From: Minisyncoccota bacterium
Lineage (GTDB): Bacteria > Patescibacteriota > Minisyncoccia > UBA9983
Length of the DNA stretch: 64,000 bases
NCBI GenBank assembly: GCA_041648395.1
Contig: JBAZPC010000001.1
Span: 31,173-95,172, forward strand
Reading direction: 5' to 3'
The translations under genes and the position numbers were made by a program. The notes beneath the pieces were generated by a model that had not been told where the DNA came from, ran no database searches, and worked only from the letters and a program-made list of their open reading frames with translations. This document shows, piece after piece, positions 892-9,969 of the stretch. How positions within the stretch are numbered: position 1 is the stretch's first letter; each line of letters opens with the position of its first letter.

Positions 892-2583
892 ATGCCAGCA
901 ATTATTAAAATATTTGTATTAGGAACTATATTAGCTGGTTTTTCTAATCTTTTTTTTGGGTTGATAATATATTTTAAAAATAAAAAAGAAAAACAAAACA
1001 TTATTTTTCTTTTATTGGAGCTTTCTATAGTTTTATGGCTTTTTTCTTATGCAATATGGTTAGCCAAAGACAATGAAGTAAGCGCTCTTTTTTGGTCGCG
1101 TATGCTCAATTTAGGCGCCACCCTAATTCCCGTTCTGTTCTTACATTGGGTTGTTGCTTTTTTGGGGTTAGTGCGAAAAAAATTTTTAATATTCGCCTAT
1201 ATTTCAACAATAATTTTTTCTTTTTTTAGTTTCTCTTCTTTTTATATACAAAAAGTAAAGGAAGTGTCAATTTTTTCTTATTGGCCTCAAGCTGGGTGGT
1301 TGTATTCTATATTTTTAGCAACTTTTGTAATTTATTTTGGTTATGGTTTTATACTTTTATACGGATTTATTAAAGATAAATCTAATAATAAGGAAAGAAT
1401 TCTTCAGATAAAGTATATTTTTTTAGGGTCTATAATTAGTGCCATTGGCGGAATTTTTAATTTTCCCTTAATGTACGGGGTTCCGCTTATGCCTTTAACA
1501 TTGACAACTATTTTTCATCCTATCTTTTGGGCTTATGGAATTTTAAAACATAATTTATTCAACATAAAAGTAGTTGCTACGGAATTTTTAGTAATATTCT
1601 TGTTGGTTATCTTCCTTGTAAATATATTTTTCTACACAAGTATTTTTGAATTAAGTTTTAAAATATTTATTTTTATTGCATCTACTTTTCTTGGTATTTT
1701 TATTATCCGCTCCGTTCTCAAGGAGGTTAAAACCCGCGAGGAGATGGAGGGGCTGGCATGGAAGTTGGAACAGGCGAATATCAAATTGCAGGAGTTGGAT
1801 AAAGCCAAGTCGGATTTTGTGACTATCGCTTCACACCAATTAAGGACGCCCATCACCGCCATCAAGGGCTACGCCTCCATGGTTCTGGAGGGCTCGTTCG
1901 GCGCGGTGCCGGAAAAAGCGAAGGTTGCCGTAAGCAAGATATTTGAATCAAGCAACCGGCTGGTGGCGCTCATCAATGATTTTCTTAATTTAAGCAGGAT
2001 AGAGAGAGGAAAGATGGAATACGCGTTTGCGAAAGTGAATTTGAAAGAAATGATTGAGACAATTTTTGACGAATTCAAGACAATTAATGTAAAAAAGAAG
2101 ACACCATTAGATTTGAGTTTAAAAATTAACGATGGCGACTTCAGCACGAGCGCCGATTCGGACAAGATACGACAGACAATTTATAATTTGATAGACAACG
2201 CCGTAAAATACACTCAAAAAGGATTCGTGAAAATTTCCCTTTATAAAGACGATGGCGAGGGCGAAATAATCATGAAAGTTGAGGACTCGGGCAAGGGAAT
2301 GTCAAAAGAAACACTAGATAACATTTTTGAGAAATTCGCCCGCGCCAAGGGCGACGGCGAAAAATACCAAGTGGAAGGCACCGGTCTCGGGCTTTACGTG
2401 GCGCGGGAGATCGCCAAGGCGCACGGCGGAGACGTTTGGGCGGAAAGCGGGGGGCTGGATAAGGGAAGCGCTTTTATTTTGAAACTGCCTATGGATTTTA
2501 TTACTCCGGAAGAGCGCAGGAAAAAAGAGGAAGAAGAAAAAGCAAAAAAAGAGAAGGTGGAACAATTTATAAAAAAGATATAG
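892..2583 (+). CDS. Sensor histidine kinase with N-terminal polytopic (7TM-type) membrane domain, HisKA and HATPase_c domains, and a K/E-rich C-terminal tail
   Basis: The N-terminus has multiple hydrophobic helices. The H-box is SHQLRTPITAIKGYASMV, the N-box is IDNAVKYT, and the G2 box is GTGLGLYVAREIAKAHGG. The ATG at 892 lies directly after the upstream stop. Confidence 0.85.
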   Translation: MPAIIKIFVLGTILAGFSNLFFGLIIYFKNKKEKQNIIFLLLELSIVLWLFSYAIWLAKDNEVSALFWSRMLNLGATLIPVLFLHWVVAFLGLVRKKFLIFAYISTIIFSFFSFSSFYIQKVKEVSIFSYWPQAGWLYSIFLATFVIYFGYGFILLYGFIKDKSNNKERILQIKYIFLGSIISAIGGIFNFPLMYGVPLMPLTLTTIFHPIFWAYGILKHNLFNIKVVATEFLVIFLLVIFLVNIFFYTSIFELSFKIFIFIASTFLGIFIIRSVLKEVKTREEMEGLAWKLEQANIKLQELDKAKSDFVTIASHQLRTPITAIKGYASMVLEGSFGAVPEKAKVAVSKIFESSNRLVALINDFLNLSRIERGKMEYAFAKVNLKEMIETIFDEFKTINVKKKTPLDLSLKINDGDFSTSADSDKIRQTIYNLIDNAVKYTQKGFVKISLYKDDGEGEIIMKVEDSGKGMSKETLDNIFEKFARAKGDGEKYQVEGTGLGLYVAREIAKAHGGDVWAESGGLDKGSAFILKLPMDFITPEERRKKEEEEKAKKEKVEQFIKKI

Positions 2584-2595
2584 AATATAAATATT

Positions 2596-3288
2596 ATGAT
2601 ATCTATAGCGCTTCATTTTATTATAGCCATAATATTTTTAGTTTCCTCGGTTGTTCTTTATATTTTATGGAAGAAACAAGGTTCTCCAAAGAATTATATT
2701 ATGGATTACTTTTTCTTTTTAAGTTTTTTTTCACTGTATCATCTTGCGCTTTCGTTGCCATATATAATTTTTGGAGAGAACTTAACATTAATGGCATGGG
2801 GATATATTTTGGCCATGATATCATTGTTATTTTTATTTCCGCGCGTCTATAAAATTACATTAAAAATTTGGGGTGTTTCAGAACAAAAAATCAAATTAGT
2901 GATATATCTGACAACACTTCTTATTCTTACGACTATAATTATATACATATATGATTTTCGCACACCTTATATCGTTAATCCGGGATTCATTATTTGGAAT
3001 GGAAATATTATAGGCAGTATAATAATTTTTTTACTAGGATTAGAAGCAGGTGTTTTCTGGGCTATAACATTTTTAAAGAATATACCAAAGGATTTAATTT
3101 TTATTTATAAATTAAAAACGTACCTTTATATTGCGGCTGCGGTATTGGTAGCTATTTCGTCTATTTATTTTGTTTCCAGAACTGTATTATTGGTAATTAT
3201 CGCTTTTGTTTCCCATGGCCTTGCCAGTGTATTTTTTGTTATACCGGTATTATTACCTAAACCATCCCAAGAAAATATAAATGAATGA
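2596..3288 (+). CDS. Polytopic membrane protein of unknown function, resembling the N-terminal 7TM sensor domain of the adjacent kinase
   Basis: A 230-aa ORF with about 7 hydrophobic segments and no recognisable catalytic motif. Confidence 0.5.
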   Translation: MISIALHFIIAIIFLVSSVVLYILWKKQGSPKNYIMDYFFFLSFFSLYHLALSLPYIIFGENLTLMAWGYILAMISLLFLFPRVYKITLKIWGVSEQKIKLVIYLTTLLILTTIIIYIYDFRTPYIVNPGFIIWNGNIIGSIIIFLLGLEAGVFWAITFLKNIPKDLIFIYKLKTYLYIAAAVLVAISSIYFVSRTVLLVIIAFVSHGLASVFFVIPVLLPKPSQENINE

Positions 3289-3415
3289 AATTATTTTAAT
3301 TGTAATACTCGCGGCGGTTGTGGTTTGGCTTTTGGCGACGCGCAAAAAAGGGGAGAAGAGCCGAAAGCGCGGGGTTAGAAAAGGGTTCGGCTTTTTACAT
3401 GAAATTGCCGGTTAA
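3281..3415 (+). pseudogene. Chimeric gene fragment: a diverged copy of the rmuC 5' end (MNEIILIVILAAVVVWLLATRKK) fused out of frame to a copy of the 3' end of a histidine-kinase gene
   Basis: The 36 nt ggttgtggtttggcttttggcgacgcgcaaaaaag are nearly identical to rmuC 8966-9003. The segment ...gaaagcgcggggttagaaaagggttcggctttttacatgaaattgccggttaaa matches 6112-6165, the HK 3' copy. It carries a TATAAA box 9 nt before the next gene. Confidence 0.5.
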
Positions 3416-3435
3416 AGAGGTATAAATTTACGTTA

Positions 3436-4377
3436 ATGAAATACGAATATAAAAAATTTAATATAAGATATACAGCCAGTTTTACTTCAAAATATAAAAA
3501 TAATGATATTAAGGTTTGGTTTGCAAGACCGACTGATTCCGAATGTCAAAAAATAGAAAAAATAAAGATTTCACCAAAACCACACTCTGATTATAATGAC
3601 AAACAAGGAAATAAAATTTTATACTTTAATTTCGAGAACCAAAAAAGTATAAAAGTACAAATGGATATTAAGGTAATCCTGTGGAAAAATAAAATAAATT
3701 TGTTAAAAGAAAAAATATCATTACCGTCGTTTTCTTCAAAAATATTTCAAAAATATACAAAAAATGAAAAGTTTCTAGAACAAACTTTGACAATAAAAAA
3801 TTTAACTAATCAAATTACTAGAAATGACCAATTTATTTTAGATAAAATCTTTTCAATAACAAAATTTTTAGAAAAAAATTTTAAATATACTTACCCTATC
3901 AAAAATAGGGGGGTTAAAAATTTAGATATTAATAATCTAAAAGGCGATTGTGGTGAAGTGGGTGCTTTATTTGTAACAATGTGCAGAATTTTAGGTATTC
4001 CAGCCCGAAACAACACTGGCTTTGTAATATATCGCGATGAATTAAACAACATATACGAACATGGATGGGGAAGTATTTATTTAAAACCTTATGGGTGGAT
4101 AGATATTGATCCGTTGGCTAATAATATATCTGAAAAAATAAATAAAGAGTATTTATATCACCAAAAAAATTATTTTCTATCTTTTACAAAAGGATTTAAT
4201 ATAAAAATTAATCCAAAAATTCCGAATAAATTTAAAATAGATTATTGGAATAATTTAGGACTACCTTTAACAAATGCATCTGTTCAGGTTTTGCAGCCGT
4301 TAGTTTTTGCATCTAAAGAAAAAGTAGTGTTTTTAGACAGCATAAAATTACTTCCCAATATAAAGAGCCCCAACTAA
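3436..4377 (+). CDS. Transglutaminase-like (Transglut_core) cysteine protease-fold protein
   Basis: Cys/His/Asp signature: GDCGEVGALFVTMCRILGIPARNNTGF ... EHGWGSIYLKPYGWIDIDP. This is the classic transglutaminase-like pattern G-x-C...R..GIPAR...H.W...D. Confidence 0.7.
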   Translation: MKYEYKKFNIRYTASFTSKYKNNDIKVWFARPTDSECQKIEKIKISPKPHSDYNDKQGNKILYFNFENQKSIKVQMDIKVILWKNKINLLKEKISLPSFSSKIFQKYTKNEKFLEQTLTIKNLTNQITRNDQFILDKIFSITKFLEKNFKYTYPIKNRGVKNLDINNLKGDCGEVGALFVTMCRILGIPARNNTGFVIYRDELNNIYEHGWGSIYLKPYGWIDIDPLANNISEKINKEYLYHQKNYFLSFTKGFNIKINPKIPNKFKIDYWNNLGLPLTNASVQVLQPLVFASKEKVVFLDSIKLLPNIKSPN

Positions 4378-4409
4378 AGTTAATTAGTTGGGGCAAAAAA
4401 GGGGATTTC

Positions 4410-4532
4410 TTACCCTTTCTTTACTCGTGCCGAAGACGAAGAACAACTTTTATGAATCGCGCCAACGACAAGATTTTTTGTGTTACCTTTTGCTTCAGCT
4501 TTTGGAGGAACATATTGTTTCTCTTTCTTCAT
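4410..4532 (-). CDS. Small 40-aa peptide, a candidate RiPP precursor: MKKEKQYVPPKAEAKGNTKNLVVGAIHKSCSSSSARVKKG
   Basis: The ORF is immediately downstream of the radical-SAM gene on the same strand. A strong Shine-Dalgarno AAGGAGGTGA (overlapping the rSAM stop) lies 8 nt before the ATG. The N-terminus is Lys-rich and leader-like, and the C-terminal segment is Cys/Ser-rich. It was not in the ORF track because it is under 60 aa. Confidence 0.45.
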   Translation of the reverse strand: MKKEKQYVPPKAEAKGNTKNLVVGAIHKSCSSSSARVKKG

Positions 4533-4540
4533 TGTTTTTT

Positions 4541-5914
4541 TCACCTCCTTTCCTTATTATTTTGAATTAAATGGTTTAAGGTTGTTATCCGACAATTTTC
4601 TGGTGACGGGCCCAAAAGATCGCTTCCTTCTAGAAAGGCCAGCCCCGGACAACGAGCACAAGAAGTAAGCAGTTGACATTTTGAACACTTTGTTAATTTA
4701 CTGATAATTAAACTGCGTAGGTATTGGAGACCAAGAGAGTTGTGCCAAATTTCTGAAAAATTATCTCCTTTTAAATCACCGACTTCATAAAGAAGTTGGT
4801 TGCAGGGCAATACTTTGCCAGAGGGAGTGATGGCGCACGAATTAAATCCGCTATAACACGGAGGAGCATTTGAGATATCAGAAAGTCCGAGATAAAATTG
4901 ATGATCCTGAAACGGTTTTCGCCCAGCGTAGAGGGCTGAAAAATCTTCATCCGCAAGAAATTCTTCTATCTGCCTATCACTCAACCGCAAGTTAAACGTA
5001 TCTTGCGATCCATCGTTGCGCGCAGTAATAATCGGGCTAGGGGAGAGTACGCAATCTAATTCTTCCGTAAGTTTTTTTACTTTATAGCGCTCATTAAAAT
5101 TTATCTGCATCATCGGAAACGCTATTTCAACCTTAACCCCTGCTTTTCTAAGATTCTTAATGCCATCTAAGCTTTTTTGAAATGACCCCGAAAGGCGTGT
5201 AATAGAATCGTGGATTTCGGTGGTTGCCCCATAAAGGCTTACTTGCACCCTTCTTACAGAATACTTTGCTAGCGTGGTTGCTGTTTCTTCACTTATTAGT
5301 GTGCCATTACTTAGTATGTCGATAACAAAATGGAGACTGCTGGCATATTTTACGATATCAATCGCATCTTTGCGTATAAAGAATTCTCCACCAGTAAGCG
5401 ACAAAAAGAGACACCTTTCTTTAGCTAATTCGCCTAAAATCCTTTTGATCTCAGATAGTCTTAAGGAAGGCAAGTTTCTTTCCATATAGCAATGTATACA
5501 TTTTTCATTGCAGGTGTAAGTAGTTTCGAATGTAGCTGCAAAAGGAATAAGATGTTTAATCGCTTCCATTTCTATAGCCAATAACACGTTTTCTCCTTCT
5601 GTTTCTGTGCCTAGGGCATTATTATGCTTGTCAACTTGAAGATGCCGATTATCAAGTTTTAAAAATCCCATTTGCACTGCTTCCTGAAGAAAGGTGTCAA
5701 CATCTTTTTTTGCAATTTTTACACTGAGATCATATTCGGTTGATAGCCATTTAATAACCTGATCATACTTTTGTCCGGATACTAGCTTTTGCCAGATAAT
5801 TGATGCAGCTTCGTTCCAAATAACGATTTTTTGATTTTTGCAGTTAAAAGCAACAACGTTGTCGTTAATGAGTCGCCAGCCAATTCTTGAATTTATCTCA
5901 ATTATTTCCATCAT
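4541..5914 (-). CDS. Radical SAM/SPASM-domain enzyme with an N-terminal PqqD-like RiPP recognition element (RRE), likely a peptide-modifying maturase
   Basis: The N-terminal ~90 aa fit the PqqD/RRE pattern (NEAASIIWQKL...DVDTFLQEAVQMGFL). The radical SAM motif is CNEKCIHC (CX3CX2C). The C-terminus has a Cys-rich SPASM/twitch region (CYSGFNSCAITPSGKVLPCNQ...CSKCQLLTSCARCPG). An AGGAGG sits before the ATG. Confidence 0.85.
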   Translation of the reverse strand: MMEIIEINSRIGWRLINDNVVAFNCKNQKIVIWNEAASIIWQKLVSGQKYDQVIKWLSTEYDLSVKIAKKDVDTFLQEAVQMGFLKLDNRHLQVDKHNNALGTETEGENVLLAIEMEAIKHLIPFAATFETTYTCNEKCIHCYMERNLPSLRLSEIKRILGELAKERCLFLSLTGGEFFIRKDAIDIVKYASSLHFVIDILSNGTLISEETATTLAKYSVRRVQVSLYGATTEIHDSITRLSGSFQKSLDGIKNLRKAGVKVEIAFPMMQINFNERYKVKKLTEELDCVLSPSPIITARNDGSQDTFNLRLSDRQIEEFLADEDFSALYAGRKPFQDHQFYLGLSDISNAPPCYSGFNSCAITPSGKVLPCNQLLYEVGDLKGDNFSEIWHNSLGLQYLRSLIISKLTKCSKCQLLTSCARCPGLAFLEGSDLLGPSPENCRITTLNHLIQNNKERR

Positions 5915-6021
5915 TTTTTCCTCCTTTCTGTTTATTTTTTAAAGACCTGTGGTCTTGTTTTCTGCTTTTAACCCTATACTTTTAATAGCTTTTGTCAATT
6001 TAAAAATGTATAATAATTAAA

Positions 6022-6180
6022 ATGGACACGGCGCAGATAGTGGAAGGCACCGGCCTCGGGCTTTACGTGGCGCGCGAGATTGCCAAGGCGCACGGCGGTA
6101 ATGTTTGGGCGGAAAGCGGGGGGCTGGACAAGGGCTCGGCTTTCTACATGAAATTGCCGGTTAAAAATGTTATATCATAA
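6022..6180 (+). pseudogene. Chimeric 52-codon ORF: the first six codons of rmuC (MDTAQI) fused in frame to a ~140-nt copy of a histidine-kinase HATPase C-terminus (…VEGTGLGLYVAREIAKAHGGNVWAESGGLDKGSAFYMKLPVKNVIS)
   Basis: Bases 6004-6039 are identical to 8917-8952, which is the rmuC promoter plus start. Bases 6040-6150 are about 90% identical to HK 2374-2484. Its stop overlaps the ATG of the next gene (TAATG). Confidence 0.45.
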
Positions 6181-6896
6181 TGAAATCTAAAAAAGATAAT
6201 AAATCAAATATAGAACGTAAAATTATTCCTATTGGCGGTGGATTACTGCGTTTGGACGAAACAATTACCATAGATAAATTTATTGTCAAAGAAAGCGGCA
6301 AAAAAAATCCGAAAGTTTTATTTATACCCACCGCAAGCAAAGATTTACTGGCATACTCCAACGTCTTTCGCCGTGTGTACGAAAAATTAGGGTGCCAAGT
6401 AAAAATCTTGCGTTTATTTAATAAAAGAAAATTTTCTCAAACAACATTAGAAAAACTCATCACAAGTGCCGACATTATTTATGTCGGTGGCGGTGATTAT
6501 GATATTCTGCTTTCGATGTGGAGGAAACACAAAATTATTTCTCTCATACGGTTAGCATACCAACAAGGAACCATTCTCACCGGGTTAAGCGCGGGATGTG
6601 CCGTCTGGTATGAATATCTCATAGATAGCGATAAGGATAAAAAAACTCGCCTCAAAAAAGGGCTCGGCATACTTGAAGGTGTCGTAATTCCTCACTATAG
6701 AACCGAGGATCCACTTTCTCTCGAGATTCGCAAGACAAAAATCATCGTTACTGGCATTGAAGACAAATGTGCCGTGATATACACTAACGAGCACCTAAGA
6801 GGTTCTATACCAGCAAGTAAAGAAAAGGCCTTTACAATTCGCCCTCCTTATGTTAAAAAGAAGCAGGTAACTTTGTACTTTCACAAATCTCATTAA
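6180..6896 (+). CDS. Peptidase S51 family (peptidase E / cyanophycinase-like serine peptidase)
   Basis: IIYVGGGDYDILL...GTILTGLSAGCAV (the Ser nucleophile in SAG) and the downstream VIPHY histidine align with E. coli peptidase E (IIIVGGGNTFQLL...YIGWSAGANLA...NPHF). Confidence 0.75.
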   Translation: MKSKKDNKSNIERKIIPIGGGLLRLDETITIDKFIVKESGKKNPKVLFIPTASKDLLAYSNVFRRVYEKLGCQVKILRLFNKRKFSQTTLEKLITSADIIYVGGGDYDILLSMWRKHKIISLIRLAYQQGTILTGLSAGCAVWYEYLIDSDKDKKTRLKKGLGILEGVVIPHYRTEDPLSLEIRKTKIIVTGIEDKCAVIYTNEHLRGSIPASKEKAFTIRPPYVKKKQVTLYFHKSH

Positions 6897-6915
6897 ACTA
6901 AAAAGGAGGTGGCAG

Positions 6916-7986
6916 ATGATCTCGAAAATTCCACGCCCCCTCCAGTATGGAGATGGGGTAGCTTTGGTCAATCCGGCTGGCGTACTTCCGGAGCGGTTCA
7001 AAAACCAATACAGATATGTCAAGGCTCATCTTGAGGAACTTGGATTTACTGTCAGAGACTTCGTAATTGAAAGTGGTTGGGAGGACGCGCGAAGGCGTAG
7101 TGAAACATTGCAGGCGGCGTTTACCGACCCGCAAGTGAAAGCGATACTGCCTCTCTGTGGTGGCGCGAGAATCTACGACATTCTTCCGCTGATTGATTAC
7201 GATGTGTTAGCCAGTCATCCGAAGATTATTTGCGGTTCGAGCGAGCTTTCGGCTCTTGTGGTAACAATCGCTGAGCGGGCGGGTATGGTAACGTTCTTTG
7301 GTCCGCATCTCAACTTTCTTAACCCCAAGGCGTCAAAACTTGAGAACAGATTCACGGTGAGGAGCTTTTGGAATATGCTCCAGTGGGACTGGCACGGAAG
7401 AAACGGCCTAAGTAAAAACGAGGCGCATCACTTCTTTGTTGCTCCTCGAAAGCCAACTCTTCCGGTGGTAATTCATAACATTTACCGTGATCCGACACGT
7501 ATTACAAATAATCGCTACAGAGACAACTTCTACTACACTCCTATCTCGGATCAGAATGTAACCGGACAGCTCTTGATTGGGTCACTTGCGGTGCTAATAC
7601 GTCTTTGTGAGGAGGGATTGAACCCTGACATAACGGATAAGATTGTCATGCTTGATTCGTTGGATATGTCTCTTGGGACGGTTGCCGAATTACTCCAGCG
7701 TTTCAATGCTCACTGCGATCTTTCCCATGCCACGGCAGTCGTCTTTTCCTCGCTCGCCGAGAGAACGGATCGAGAGAATCTTTTGTATCCGGAATTACGA
7801 GACATGGATCGGGTGAAGGGATTCCTTCAGGAAGTTTCTGAATTGCTCGGAGGAAAACTGCCTCTCTTTTATGGTTTTCCTGTCGGACACTGTGCGTACA
7901 AGCTCACTTTGCCGATTGGGATTACCGCCTCCATCGTTGTTGAAACCGGCGACTTGCTACTCGTGGAGTCTCCGTACCAACAATAA
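6916..7986 (+). CDS. Peptidase S66 family (LD-carboxypeptidase LdcA / microcin C7 immunity MccF-like)
   Basis: ILPLCGGARIYDILPLIDYDVLASHPKIICGSSELSALVV...VTFFGPHL aligns with LdcA (LAVRGGYGASRLLADIDWQAL...LLICGHSDFTAIQ...ITFSGPML). The C-terminal GFPVGH provides the catalytic His. A GGAGGTGG SD sits before the ATG. Confidence 0.75.
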   Translation: MISKIPRPLQYGDGVALVNPAGVLPERFKNQYRYVKAHLEELGFTVRDFVIESGWEDARRRSETLQAAFTDPQVKAILPLCGGARIYDILPLIDYDVLASHPKIICGSSELSALVVTIAERAGMVTFFGPHLNFLNPKASKLENRFTVRSFWNMLQWDWHGRNGLSKNEAHHFFVAPRKPTLPVVIHNIYRDPTRITNNRYRDNFYYTPISDQNVTGQLLIGSLAVLIRLCEEGLNPDITDKIVMLDSLDMSLGTVAELLQRFNAHCDLSHATAVVFSSLAERTDRENLLYPELRDMDRVKGFLQEVSELLGGKLPLFYGFPVGHCAYKLTLPIGITASIVVETGDLLLVESPYQQ

Positions 7987-8018
7987 AGGCTGAATAGAAC
8001 AAGTTCTATTCAGCCTTT

Positions 8019-8795
8019 TTACTTCTCTGCAAGGAGTTTGTTGATGAGCTGAGCGTCTTTGTCCGCTATACCGTATTCGGAATTTAACACCGTGGCTTGA
8101 AGACGTTCCCGAAGTTCGACATCGTGACTCAACTGATCAGCAAACGTTACAAGTGCCTCCCTCGTTTCCTTCTTGTAGTTCTGGAGTTTGGTGTACACCA
8201 CGTTCCGAAAGAATATAACAAGATCAAGGTCAGAGGCGTTGAGGGAGTCAAACTTTGCTCGGTCAAGCTCGTAAGCGAGTTCGCGACGCATAGTAAACAT
8301 AAGTTCAAGATATGCCGATGAAGCTTCTTGAACCCGCCGTCCTCTTACCAACTCAACGAAACTTGATATTGCGGTACCTATCATGTCGCCCGAGAAGATT
8401 TTACAGCCGAACGATACGGTAACATTCTCGTCCGCGAGGTGAGTATTCTCCTTGATGAAGTTATTTACTTCATCTCCCAACATTAAGAAAAACTTGTTCA
8501 CGACCGATTGGTCAGTTGCTACTCCGATAGCAAAGATTTCTTCTCCCGAAGGAATCATGCAAAAGGATGGAATCGCTTTCGAGTGCCTCTTGATAAATCC
8601 GTACATGAACGCACCAATTAGGCGATTGTAGATGTCTACAAGATTCTCCGCCAATGGACGTCCATACCGCGAGACAAAGACCCCAAGGTTATCGAGGTCT
8701 CCAGTGACCCCGAACAGAAACATATCTTGGTCGCGGTCGTAGGTTTCAACAACTTTCAAAATTTTTCTGCTCCAAATACGCTGGTGCTTTTTCAT
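8019..8795 (-). CDS. Hypothetical protein, possibly a divergent GGDEF-like palm-domain (nucleotide cyclase-like) protein
   Basis: The ORF is 258 aa with a good SD (AAAGGAGATAAGTC). The segment FGVTGDLDNLGVFVSRYGRPLAENLV loosely aligns with the GGDEF metal-binding/beta1 region (LDxDxFKxxNDxxGHxxGDxxL). SGEEIFAIGVATD loosely aligns with R-Y-GGEEF-AVLLP. The assignment is tentative. Confidence 0.4.
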   Translation of the reverse strand: MKKHQRIWSRKILKVVETYDRDQDMFLFGVTGDLDNLGVFVSRYGRPLAENLVDIYNRLIGAFMYGFIKRHSKAIPSFCMIPSGEEIFAIGVATDQSVVNKFFLMLGDEVNNFIKENTHLADENVTVSFGCKIFSGDMIGTAISSFVELVRGRRVQEASSAYLELMFTMRRELAYELDRAKFDSLNASDLDLVIFFRNVVYTKLQNYKKETREALVTFADQLSHDVELRERLQATVLNSEYGIADKDAQLINKLLAEK

Positions 8796-8899: not shown

Positions 8900-8934
8900 T
8901 TGAAATTGCCGGTTAAAAATGTATAATAATTAAA
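8900..8934 (+). promoter_or_regulatory. Candidate sigma70-type promoter for rmuC (TTGAAA-16 nt-TATAAT) placing the transcription start at or just before the ATG, giving a leaderless or near-leaderless mRNA; it lies within a copy of the HK 3' end
   Basis: TTGAAA is at 8900-8905, TATAAT at 8922-8927 and the ATG at 8935. There is no SD. Confidence 0.4.
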
Positions 8935-9969
8935 ATGGACACGGCGCAGATAATTATAATTGCAGTGCTTGCGACGGTTGTCGTTTGGCTTTTGGCGACG
9001 CGCAAAAAAGAGGAGGAGGGCGACGGCAACGGCGCCATTTTGATGATGCAGGAACAGCTGAAGGAAATCAGGAATACCTTGGACACGAAAATGGGGGAGT
9101 CAACAAAGGCCGTTCAACATCAATTCAGTGAGAGCGCCAAAATTATCCGCGACGTCACGGAAAAACTCACAAAGCTTGACGAAACAAACAAGCAGGTTGT
9201 CGGCTTCGCCGATCAACTTCAAAATTTGCAGGATATTTTACAGAATCCGAAGCAGAGAGGAGTGCTGGGCGAATATTATTTGGAAACCGTGCTAAAAAAT
9301 GTCCTTCCGCCGGGCAGATTCCAAATGCAATATAAATTTTCTGATGGAGAAATCGTTGACGCCGTGATCTTTTTGGATAAAGATAAAATCTTGCCCATTG
9401 ATTCAAAGTTTTCTTTGGAAAATTATAATCGCATTCTGGGCGAGAGAAACGCAACTGAGCGGGAAAATTTTGAAAAAGCGTTCAAGCAGGATCTGAAAAA
9501 CAGAATTGACGAAACCTCAAAATACATCAGACCAAAAGAGGGGACGATGGATTTCGCTTTTATGTTTATTCCCTCGGAGGCGATTTATTACGACTTGCTA
9601 ATTAACCAAGTCGGCGCGGTAAAGACCAACACGCGCGATCTCATAGAATACGCGTTCCAGCAGAAGCATGTCATTATTGTTTCCCCCACGTCGTTTATGG
9701 CATATTTGCAGACAGTTTTGCAGGGATTGCGGGCGTTGCAGATAGAGGAATCGGCGAAAGAGATAAGGAAGAGAGTTGAGGAGCTCGGCAGGCATTTGGG
9801 CAACTATGAGCAGTTTATGAAAAAGCTTGGCGTGAATTTAACAACTACCGTCAACGCTTATAACGCGTCTTATAAAGAGCTGAATAAAATAGACAAAGAT
9901 GTCTTGCGCATCACCGGCGAAGCCGTCGGCATGGAACCAATGGCGCTTGACAAACCAGAGGAGGTTTGA
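8935..9969 (+). CDS. rmuC: DNA recombination protein RmuC
   Basis: N-terminal TM helix. The conserved RmuC core is QRGVLGEYYLETVLKNVLPPGRFQMQYKF...DAVIFLDKDKILPIDSKFSLENY...AFMFIPSEAIY. Confidence 0.85.
   Translation: MDTAQIIIIAVLATVVVWLLATRKKEEEGDGNGAILMMQEQLKEIRNTLDTKMGESTKAVQHQFSESAKIIRDVTEKLTKLDETNKQVVGFADQLQNLQDILQNPKQRGVLGEYYLETVLKNVLPPGRFQMQYKFSDGEIVDAVIFLDKDKILPIDSKFSLENYNRILGERNATERENFEKAFKQDLKNRIDETSKYIRPKEGTMDFAFMFIPSEAIYYDLLINQVGAVKTNTRDLIEYAFQQKHVIIVSPTSFMAYLQTVLQGLRALQIEESAKEIRKRVEELGRHLGNYEQFMKKLGVNLTTTVNAYNASYKELNKIDKDVLRITGEAVGMEPMALDKPEEV

Follow-up and report, generated by a model that had tools for sequence, protein, structure and literature searches.

A candidate family of radical-SAM/SPASM RiPPs with lasso-style leader recognition in Patescibacteria

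A three-gene cassette and its conservation

A 64,000-nucleotide stretch of contig JBAZPC010000001.1 from a Minisyncoccota bacterium (assembly GCA_041648395.1), hereafter called the window, carries a cassette of three genes that we analysed as a candidate source of a peptide made by ribosomes and modified after translation (RiPP). The largest gene encodes a radical S-adenosylmethionine (SAM) enzyme with a SPASM domain and an N-terminal, PqqD-like RiPP recognition element (RRE). A 40-codon open reading frame (ORF) equipped with a Shine-Dalgarno sequence lies directly 3' of it on the same strand, and a transglutaminase-like gene with a Cys-His-Asp triad converges on this pair from the opposite strand, with a hairpin in between (Table 1). 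These three elements, and the junction repeats on both sides of the cassette, had been described in a reading made before any database search (the sequence-only reading), and all of them were recovered here, the repeats as families of direct repeats at both flanks. Its left limit at 3281 has to be moved, as the segment 3281–3425 lies outside the module and is a boundary scar composed of RmuC and histidine-kinase fragments.

Scans of species-representative genomes and of metagenomes from the Joint Genome Institute (JGI) recovered 45 close loci, six of which come from the 185,579 species-representative genomes. The small ORF was found by tblastn directly 3' of the maturase gene in all of the approximately 40 loci with enough downstream sequence, and the convergent transglutaminase-like gene in 36; the order maturase, small ORF and convergent gene is kept wherever the downstream DNA suffices. 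When all ORFs of 46 loci were clustered, the only conserved neighbours of the maturase were the small peptide and the transglutaminase-like protein. The three genes hence form a self-contained module that occurs in otherwise unrelated contexts, and the co-occurrence that the sequence-only reading had put forward as a check on the triplet is strict. Even the most divergent member, on a GC-rich contig and with a maturase only 43% identical, retains a peptide (MGNTKKTYEPPKPKQQADTKPVVLGAVHKGCASVSARSKKG) and the convergent gene. One more distant locus (P0089/L161) was rejected as a family member; its maturase is 33% identical and it has neither the peptide nor the transglutaminase-like gene. About 88 full-length maturase homologues at 43% identity or more were found, nearly all in Patescibacteria or in unbinned metagenomes, and the family appears to be restricted mostly to Patescibacteria (the candidate phyla radiation, CPR), with many groundwater and sediment lineages among its hosts; loci L081 and L091, for instance, derive from Hainich groundwater. 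The maturase of the window is 100% identical to an NCBI protein of a "Candidatus Paceibacterota" metagenome-assembled genome, and the window hence belongs to a CPR genome.

The ATG of the small ORF lies ten bases 3' of the Shine-Dalgarno sequence AAGGAGGT, which overlaps the TGA stop codon of the maturase gene (4541–4543); the overlap suggests translational coupling, and translation of the maturase and the precursor is probably coupled. In most related loci GAAAGGAGGTGA is kept 5' of the peptide start. The hairpin (ΔG of −26.4 kcal/mol, z = −5.0) reaches into the convergent gene at its 3' end and resembles an intrinsic terminator, which would end the maturase-precursor transcript; comparable hairpins follow the peptide stop codon in loci L001 to L005. 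A search of the small-ORF region and of the flanking repeats against Rfam returned nothing above threshold, and an RNA explanation for either was rejected; no tRNA was found beside the module within the window.

Candidate precursor peptide, maturase and transglutaminase-like protein

The 40-codon ORF is a real gene under purifying selection, as evidenced by a frame without stops in all 37 unique DNA sequences (stops interrupt most of the other frames), by pairwise differences that accumulate at the third codon position (0.31, 0.22 and 0.61 for positions 1, 2 and 3) and by a conserved alignment, which runs free of gaps over 33 residues. Six positions (P10, H27, K28, C30, K38 and K39) do not vary among 32 peptides derived from the loci, and Y7, G16, T18, G29, S32, R36 and G40 are nearly invariant; in 35 database peptides K38, K39 and G40 are conserved to at least 90%. 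Three family members end right after R-[S/T], and the KKG tail may thus be dispensable or removed. The single Cys followed by four Ser to which the sequence-only reading had drawn attention is present in this copy; as a family trait it does not stand, the consensus being C-[P/S]-S-S-[S/A]-[A/S]-R, where C30 alone never varies and S32 and R36 are close to invariant. Since this sole cysteine is invariant, it is the obvious candidate site for radical-SAM chemistry, for instance a thioether as in the single-Cys radical-SAM RiPPs (RaS-RiPPs), and with one Cys at most one thioether could form.

The databases annotate the peptide as "hypothetical protein" only, and the searches made assigned it to no family. 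A profile search for distant relatives among 1.84 billion representatives returned eight clusters of the family, four of them new (P0252–P0255); the remaining matches were spurious and lay in repeat proteins. P0255 has Asn in place of His (N-K-G-C for H-K-G-C), which was considered as support for an NxxC-like thioether from Cys to the residue at −3. The lead was dropped because its locus (L162/L163) is a degenerate copy, in which Trp stands in place of the catalytic Cys of the protease and no RRE-maturase is left; the remaining pair lies among other radical-SAM genes with precursors of their own. The sulfatase-maturase (anSME) motif C/S-x-P/A-x-R was likewise rejected, as it fits inconsistently across the peptide family.

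The N-terminal part of the peptide resembles a lasso leader. A YxxP motif is present in 59 of 62 unique family peptides, and in 49 of these 59 the residue at Y+5 is Ala, Ile, Val or Leu; [Y/W]xxPx[L/V/I/F/A] is the motif bound by lasso-type RREs (PMC13381572; PMC10368454). In 58 of the 59 the invariant His follows the Tyr at a distance of 20 residues. With the Tyr set at −17, as in the lasso register, position −2 is Val or Ile in 56 of 59 peptides, a variant documented for lasso leaders (PMC10368454), and position 1 of the core is Ala, Gly or Ser in all 59. By this analogy, residues 1–23 would be the leader and GAIHKSCSSSSARVKKG the core, with cleavage between residues 23 and 24 as our best guess. 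None of the 62 peptides has an Asp or Glu within its last 20 residues, which makes a lasso macrolactam impossible, and their net charge ranges from +5 to +13.

All three domains of the maturase score above their Pfam cut-offs: Radical_SAM (PF04055) with 76.5 bits against 29.5, SPASM (PF13186) with 35.8 against 21.5, and PqqD (PF05402) with 33.8 over the whole protein and 37.5 for the N terminus alone against 23.4, so that the N-terminal RRE, on which the sequence-only reading depended, passes its profile. Across 38 homologues the radical-SAM motif C135-x3-C139-x2-C142 is invariant, as are C353, C371, C410, C413, C419 and C422 of the SPASM pattern C353-x12-G366-x4-C371 ... C410-x2-C413-x5-C419-x2-C422 ... 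C441; C441 is conserved to at least 90%. An AlphaFold 2 model (mean confidence score, pLDDT, 90.9) gives the RRE a beta-strand/three-helix arrangement, and the best structural matches of the whole model in the PDB are SuiB and CteB, both full-length (Foldseek E of about 1e-17, 470–478 aligned columns), followed at lower rank by SkfB, TigE, anSME and PqqE. The best PDB matches by sequence are SkfB, PqqE, SuiB and CteB.

Of the NCBIfam models none reached its cut-off. The top E-values belong to AhbD (1.8e-37) and NirJ2 (9.1e-36), which match the radical-SAM core only and score 129.5 and 124 bits against cut-offs of 500 bits; the JGI label "AdoMet-dependent heme synthase" carried by some homologues is thus unsupported. 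The best full-length alignments are to MftC (residues 124–440, E = 4.5e-33, 114.8 bits against 265), AlbA, StsB and GeoRSP-type models, all far under their cut-offs. PqqE is below equivalog level (63.5 bits against 381), and the curated sactipeptide, ranthipeptide, streptide and WgkB maturase models all stay below theirs (AlbA 82.8 against 850, StsB 76.7 against 625, SkfB 63.9 against 300).

A different affinity emerged when a profile of the N-terminal 90 residues was searched against PDB sequences. It matched the lasso B1 proteins TbiB1 (1.2e-11, over the full length of the RRE), 9x90_B (3.4e-9) and TfuB1 (3e-8), another PqqD-family protein at 5.9e-7 and PqqD itself only at 0.049; neither CteB nor SuiB was matched in this search. 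The B1 chaperones are thus matched far better than PqqD, which assigns the predicted peptide-binding domain to the lasso-B1 sequence type.

The transglutaminase-like protein matches PF01841, the family for which a search had been suggested, and is of the 3ISR type with an extra N-terminal beta-sandwich, followed by a papain-like core (C172, H209 and D225) and, at the C terminus, a beta domain. Within its family G170-D171-C172 and H209 do not vary, and D225 is conserved to at least 90%. The family comprises 95 sequence clusters at 40% identity or more, the next match appearing only at E = 9e-4, and was seen only alongside the RiPP module. Its structural matches include TgpA, TG2/TG3, factor XIII and PeiW/PeiP. 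The closest structural relative, 3ISR (Cytophaga hutchinsonii "transglutaminase-like enzymes, putative cysteine protease"), shares 14% identity; it has neither an assigned substrate nor a RiPP context and informs on the fold only. No match to lasso B2 (PF13471/McjB C-terminal) was obtained with Pfam, NCBIfam, PDB sequences or fold comparison. The analogy with lasso systems that the sequence-only reading had drawn through the protease is thus weaker on that side (PF01841/3ISR, not B2) and stronger on the recognition side, where the B1-type RRE and the YxxPx motif were found. We propose that the enzyme could be the leader peptidase, the follower peptidase or both, since it is strictly linked to the module, has an intact catalytic triad and is the only candidate, and since sister clusters carry a peptidase in their accessory slot.

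Table 1. Coordinates of the cassette, of its surroundings and of features in related loci. Positions refer to the window unless a locus is named; aa, amino acids.
Feature	Position	Strand	Remarks
RRE-radical SAM-SPASM maturase	4541–5914	−	457 aa
RRE/PqqD domain of maturase	5660–5854 (aa 21–85)	−	Pfam
Radical_SAM domain of maturase	5102–5527 (aa 130–271)	−	Pfam
CxxxCxxC motif of maturase	5489–5512	−	C135/C139/C142
SPASM cysteines C353–C441 of maturase	4592–4858	−	Pfam SPASM, aa 353–414
Shine-Dalgarno sequence AAGGAGGT of precursor gene	4543–4550	−	from sequence
Precursor peptide gene	4410–4532	−	40 codons + stop; ATG at 4532, stop 4410–4412; MKKEKQYVPPKAEAKGNTKNLVVGAIHKSCSSSSARVKKG
Putative leader, aa 1–23	4464–4532	−	contains Y7-x-x-P10-x-A12 and G16-N-T18
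Putative core, aa 24–40, GAIHKSCSSSSARVKKG	4413–4463	−	boundary placed by lasso register
Intrinsic-terminator-like hairpin	4367–4394	−	11-bp stem, 6 GC pairs, T-rich tail
Transglutaminase-fold cysteine protease candidate	3436–4377	+	313 aa; PF01841, E = 1e-17
Left boundary scar	3281–3425		RmuC 5' fragment and histidine-kinase 3' fragment; repeat families D2, D3; ORF translations
Right boundary scar	5995–6180		RmuC upstream/start and histidine-kinase 3' fragment; repeat families D1, D2, D4
Cassette A	2596–3288	+	230-aa multi-pass membrane protein
Cassette B	3436–5914	both	RiPP module
Cassette C	6180–8795		S51 peptidase, S66 LD-carboxypeptidase, 258-aa soluble protein (8019–8795, −)
Inverted repeats, L106	3682–3832; 6614–6763
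Inverted repeats, L107	1955–2096; 4896–5036
Inverted repeats, L001	3672–3899; 6649–6779		partial third copy 1360–1421
Inverted repeat, L085	3679–3820		left copy only; locus ends at 6194, inside transglutaminase-like gene
Outgroup clusters	L007–L080, L120–L159 (e.g. L010 1792–8942)		large conserved cluster family

Comparison with known systems and competing explanations

CteB is a sactisynthase (5WGG/5WHY) and SuiB the maturase that forms the Lys-Trp crosslink of streptide (5V1Q/S/T). Both share with the CPR maturase an RRE, a radical-SAM barrel and a C-terminal SPASM domain with auxiliary-cluster cysteines, in the same order, and in their systems, as in the cassette, a short precursor gene is adjacent. 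The maturase is only 14–17% identical to them, however, its RRE is instead of the lasso-B1 sequence type, and its precursor is unrelated to theirs, being very basic, with a single Cys and no Trp. With lasso clusters the module shares the features of membership on the recognition side, namely the B1-type RRE and the leader motif Y-x-x-P-x-[A/I/V/L], as well as a Cys-His-Asp transglutaminase-fold enzyme, the sole accessory gene of the CPR module. Unlike lasso clusters, it has no asparagine-synthetase-like cyclase in any of the 46 loci, an absence already noted from the sequence alone, its peptides lack an Asp/Glu acceptor for a macrolactam, its protease is of the PF01841/3ISR type and not PF13471/B2, and its RRE is fused to the radical-SAM enzyme. 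Mycofactocin (MftA/B/C/E) and pyrroloquinoline quinone (PQQ; PqqA/D/E) systems resemble it in that the precursor is small and conserved throughout, the RRE is of PqqD type, a radical-SAM/SPASM enzyme and a dedicated peptidase are present and an exporter is lacking. The CPR module differs from them in the fused RRE, the absence of tailoring or user enzymes, scores far under the family cut-offs and a peptide with neither the C-terminal Val-Tyr nor Glu-x3-Tyr. By these membership tests the cassette appears to be neither a lasso, sactipeptide or ranthipeptide system nor a mycofactocin or PQQ system. With no NCBIfam model at its cut-off, a peptide outside all families and no description of this RiPP family in the full-text literature that was searched, the earlier impression that it matches no described class was borne out.

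A precedent for reuse of lasso-type recognition does exist. The linear polyphosphorylated peptides (LPP) described by Popov et al. (2026; PMC13381572) are non-lasso RiPPs in which an RRE of the lasso type and the YxxP leader motif are joined to another kind of leader peptidase; their RRE is discrete, a kinase and a signal peptidase of archaeal type accompany it, their hosts are Bacillota, and for them the pairing of this recognition with the archaeal-type signal peptidase was shown experimentally (PMC13381572). The CPR cassette differs from LPP in that its RRE is fused to the radical-SAM/SPASM enzyme, its candidate peptidase is of the transglutaminase fold and it occurs in CPR bacteria.

The nearest outgroup maturases, about 30–38% identical, come mainly from Acidobacteriota, and also from Rokubacteria and others, and belong to a large family of conserved clusters. 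A radical-SAM/SPASM enzyme is present in these clusters too, and several of these enzymes share the N-terminal RRE of the CPR maturase. Their precursors form a different family with two or three Cys (pattern ..KKxYxKP...ETLALACGK..C..), exemplified by MERTQK..KKRAYVKPQC.SEPIYETLALACGK.. with K-K-x-Y-x-K-P in its leader, and no curated model covers them. The clusters also contain a protein like ScmC and HprK-related kinases, NTP_transf_5, an archaeal-type signal peptidase I and often a BamB/PQQ_2-repeat protein; unlike the CPR cassette, they have no transglutaminase-like gene. Their accessory peptidase is thus of an unrelated fold, which fits a peptidase slot filled by non-orthologous enzymes. 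We take these clusters to resemble Haft's SynChlorMet / HprK-related cassettes.

In our judgement, the cassette probably represents a new family of RRE-dependent radical-SAM/SPASM RiPPs, in which a self-contained set of three genes uses lasso-style leader recognition to produce a modified peptide. The maturase and the precursor would be transcribed together and probably translated in a coupled manner. We infer that the peptide is the substrate of the maturase, whose lasso-B1-type RRE would bind the leader through Y7-x-x-P10-x-A12, while the radical-SAM core and two auxiliary SPASM Fe-S clusters would modify the core around the invariant segment H27-K28-G/S-C30-x-S32...R36; most likely, one thioether or some other crosslink would form at the peptide's only cysteine. 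The separately transcribed transglutaminase-fold Cys-His-Asp enzyme would then remove the leader and release a cationic product of about 17 residues, which would presumably be exported and could serve an episymbiotic CPR bacterium in antagonism or signalling. A bolder form of this proposal, which we consider conceivable though doubtful, is that the cassette stands for a new RiPP class, in which lasso-type recognition was recombined with radical-SAM/SPASM catalysis and an unrelated peptidase, the product is a small, strongly cationic peptide with one cysteine and an uncatalogued crosslink or modification (for example at the invariant His-Lys-Gly-Cys or at Cys-x-Ser), and CPR episymbionts make it from a mobile 2.6-kb cassette for use on hosts or competitors.

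Several points weigh against the RiPP proposal. The cassette is known here from its genes alone, and the transglutaminase-like protein is tied to lasso B2 by fold only. Since 3ISR has no demonstrated activity, the protease candidate could equally be a ligase, an amidase or an isopeptidase. The cleavage site comes from the register of the motif only, and an alternative is just as compatible with the sequences, namely cleavage after K19 of the nearly invariant T18-K19, for which G16-x-T18 would provide a Thr(−2) position. The whole peptide is conserved and not the leader alone, a pattern commoner in cofactor-type RiPPs (PQQ, mycofactocin) than in bacteriocins. No exporter, immunity gene or regulator is linked to the module across the 46 loci, which would be unusual for a secreted antimicrobial, and disrupted copies in several relatives (described below) indicate that the module is dispensable.

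Some of these points would suit a peptide that gives rise to an intracellular product, such as a redox cofactor or metabolite of the PQQ or mycofactocin kind made by a minimal pathway with no export. Conservation of the peptide up to its extreme C terminus (K38, K39 and G40), the lack of a linked transporter or immunity gene, the rank of MftC among the full-length NCBIfam alignments and that of PqqE among the best PDB matches in both sequence and structure all agree with it. The MftC and PqqE scores are nonetheless far below their cut-offs, neither a Glu/Tyr nor a C-terminal Val-Tyr pair is present in the peptide, three members lack the KKG tail, and no partner genes for the use of a cofactor were found. 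Furthermore, the module is rare and patchy, sits in a hot spot of variable cassettes and is often degraded, which is the pattern of an accessory trait; we therefore regard an intracellular product as unlikely. Still less probable, in our view, is that the transglutaminase-fold enzyme joins the Lys-rich peptide as a tag to another molecule or protein, as a transamidase or ligase would, or acts on such a conjugate as an isopeptidase. Its fold family does include true transglutaminases and isopeptidases, the peptide has nine Lys residues and a C-terminal K-K-G that is kept, and the enzyme is transcribed apart from the maturase and precursor; against this, the peptide has no conserved Gln donor, no conserved target gene is linked, and in the sister clusters the accessory slot is taken by a family of bona fide peptidases.

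The idea that the radical-SAM gene encodes an AhbD/NirJ-like enzyme of the heme pathway, with the small ORF and the transglutaminase-like gene as incidental neighbours, could appeal to the top NCBIfam E-values and to the JGI names of several homologues. These matches span only the core of the protein and fall far short of the 500-bit cut-offs; in addition, the maturase has an RRE, which heme enzymes lack, the two neighbours are strictly co-inherited with it, and no other heme-pathway gene lies beside the cassette in CPR genomes. On the sequence evidence, this explanation is effectively refuted.

What is new here is best filed as a RiPP family that would join lasso-style leader recognition, a radical-SAM/SPASM catalyst and a transglutaminase-fold peptidase other than B2. 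CPR bacteria have very small genomes with few recognised biosynthetic clusters, and uncharacterised radical-SAM RiPP families are numerous. A cassette of three genes is small enough to be synthesised and expressed, and would offer a testable entry into how CPR bacteria act on their hosts or competitors. It would also show how nature has coupled an RRE and leader of the lasso type to radical-SAM chemistry, an example useful for leader and RRE engineering, and the peptide would be the first candidate substrate for the large family of 3ISR-like transglutaminase-fold "putative proteases". Should the crosslink in the single-Cys core prove to be a new one, radical-SAM chemistry would gain a further transformation from this family.

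Genomic context and mobility

In the window, the RiPP module is the middle one of three unrelated cassettes stacked between a seven-transmembrane (7TM) histidine-kinase gene (892–2583) and rmuC (8935–9969). The 230-residue membrane protein of cassette A and the 258-residue protein of cassette C have no match in Pfam, NCBIfam or PADLOC. At the internal junctions a 5' fragment of rmuC stands head-to-tail with a 3' fragment of the kinase gene, at 85–100% identity and with differing breakpoints. The left junction fuses RmuC 3290–3361 (85% identical to 8950–9021) to kinase 3360–3421, and the right one RmuC 6000–6039 (100% identical to 8913–8952) to kinase 6039–6170, the latter being 85–86% identical to 2370–2501. 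The junctions look like the product expected from repeated Campbell-type homologous insertion of circularised kinase-X-rmuC segments, and the interval between kinase and rmuC looks like an allele-stacking hot spot. Over the 64 kb, GC content steps from 32–36% to 43–45% near position 6000, at the right junction scar, and a relative of lower GC content may have been the source of the left 6 kb, which hold a NifS-like gene, the kinase gene and cassettes A and B. Homologues of the 7TM histidine kinase also adjoin the module in L089 (864–1718 and 6550–7731) and L117 (7810–8559), in differing arrangements, a hint that insertion beside the kinase gene has happened repeatedly.

Inverted repeats of about 140–150 nucleotides, 93–97% complementary, flank the module on both sides in L106/L107 and L001, which come from different genomes. 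No transposase lies between the repeats of these loci and no Rfam family matches them; they could be the terminal repeats of a non-autonomous mobile cassette. Phage and plasmid collections held no close relatives of the module, and the PADLOC and PHROG matches concern the generic radical-SAM core only (viperins and phage radical-SAM families), and an origin in a mobile element or defence system was rejected on these grounds.

Disrupted copies occur in several relatives. The maturase is frameshifted in L106/L107 and L110 (L106 3977–5345; L110 1876–2703), and in L094 the peptide gene is frameshifted at its 3' end and the protease is truncated (2016–2243 and 2563–3081). In L092 (5379–5549) an early stop removes only the KKG tail of the peptide; this may be no disruption, as two otherwise intact members likewise end without the tail. 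The disrupted copies reflect either sequencing errors or the ongoing loss of an accessory module. Taken with the bracketing repeats and the stacked cassettes, such decaying copies indicate that the module is accessory and apparently mobile by horizontal transfer.

A remnant is found in L162, from the Logan assembly of SRR28370467, in which no maturase is left. Its degenerate copy of the CPR peptide, together with the Cys-to-Trp protease, lies in a RiPP island (1534–5508) that contains two further radical-SAM enzymes, each beside a candidate precursor; one of these peptides is rich in Cys (..SICECQCDCNYCPCVANCVK) and the other has W-D-K repeats (..KGWDKAWDKGPWDKGHW..).

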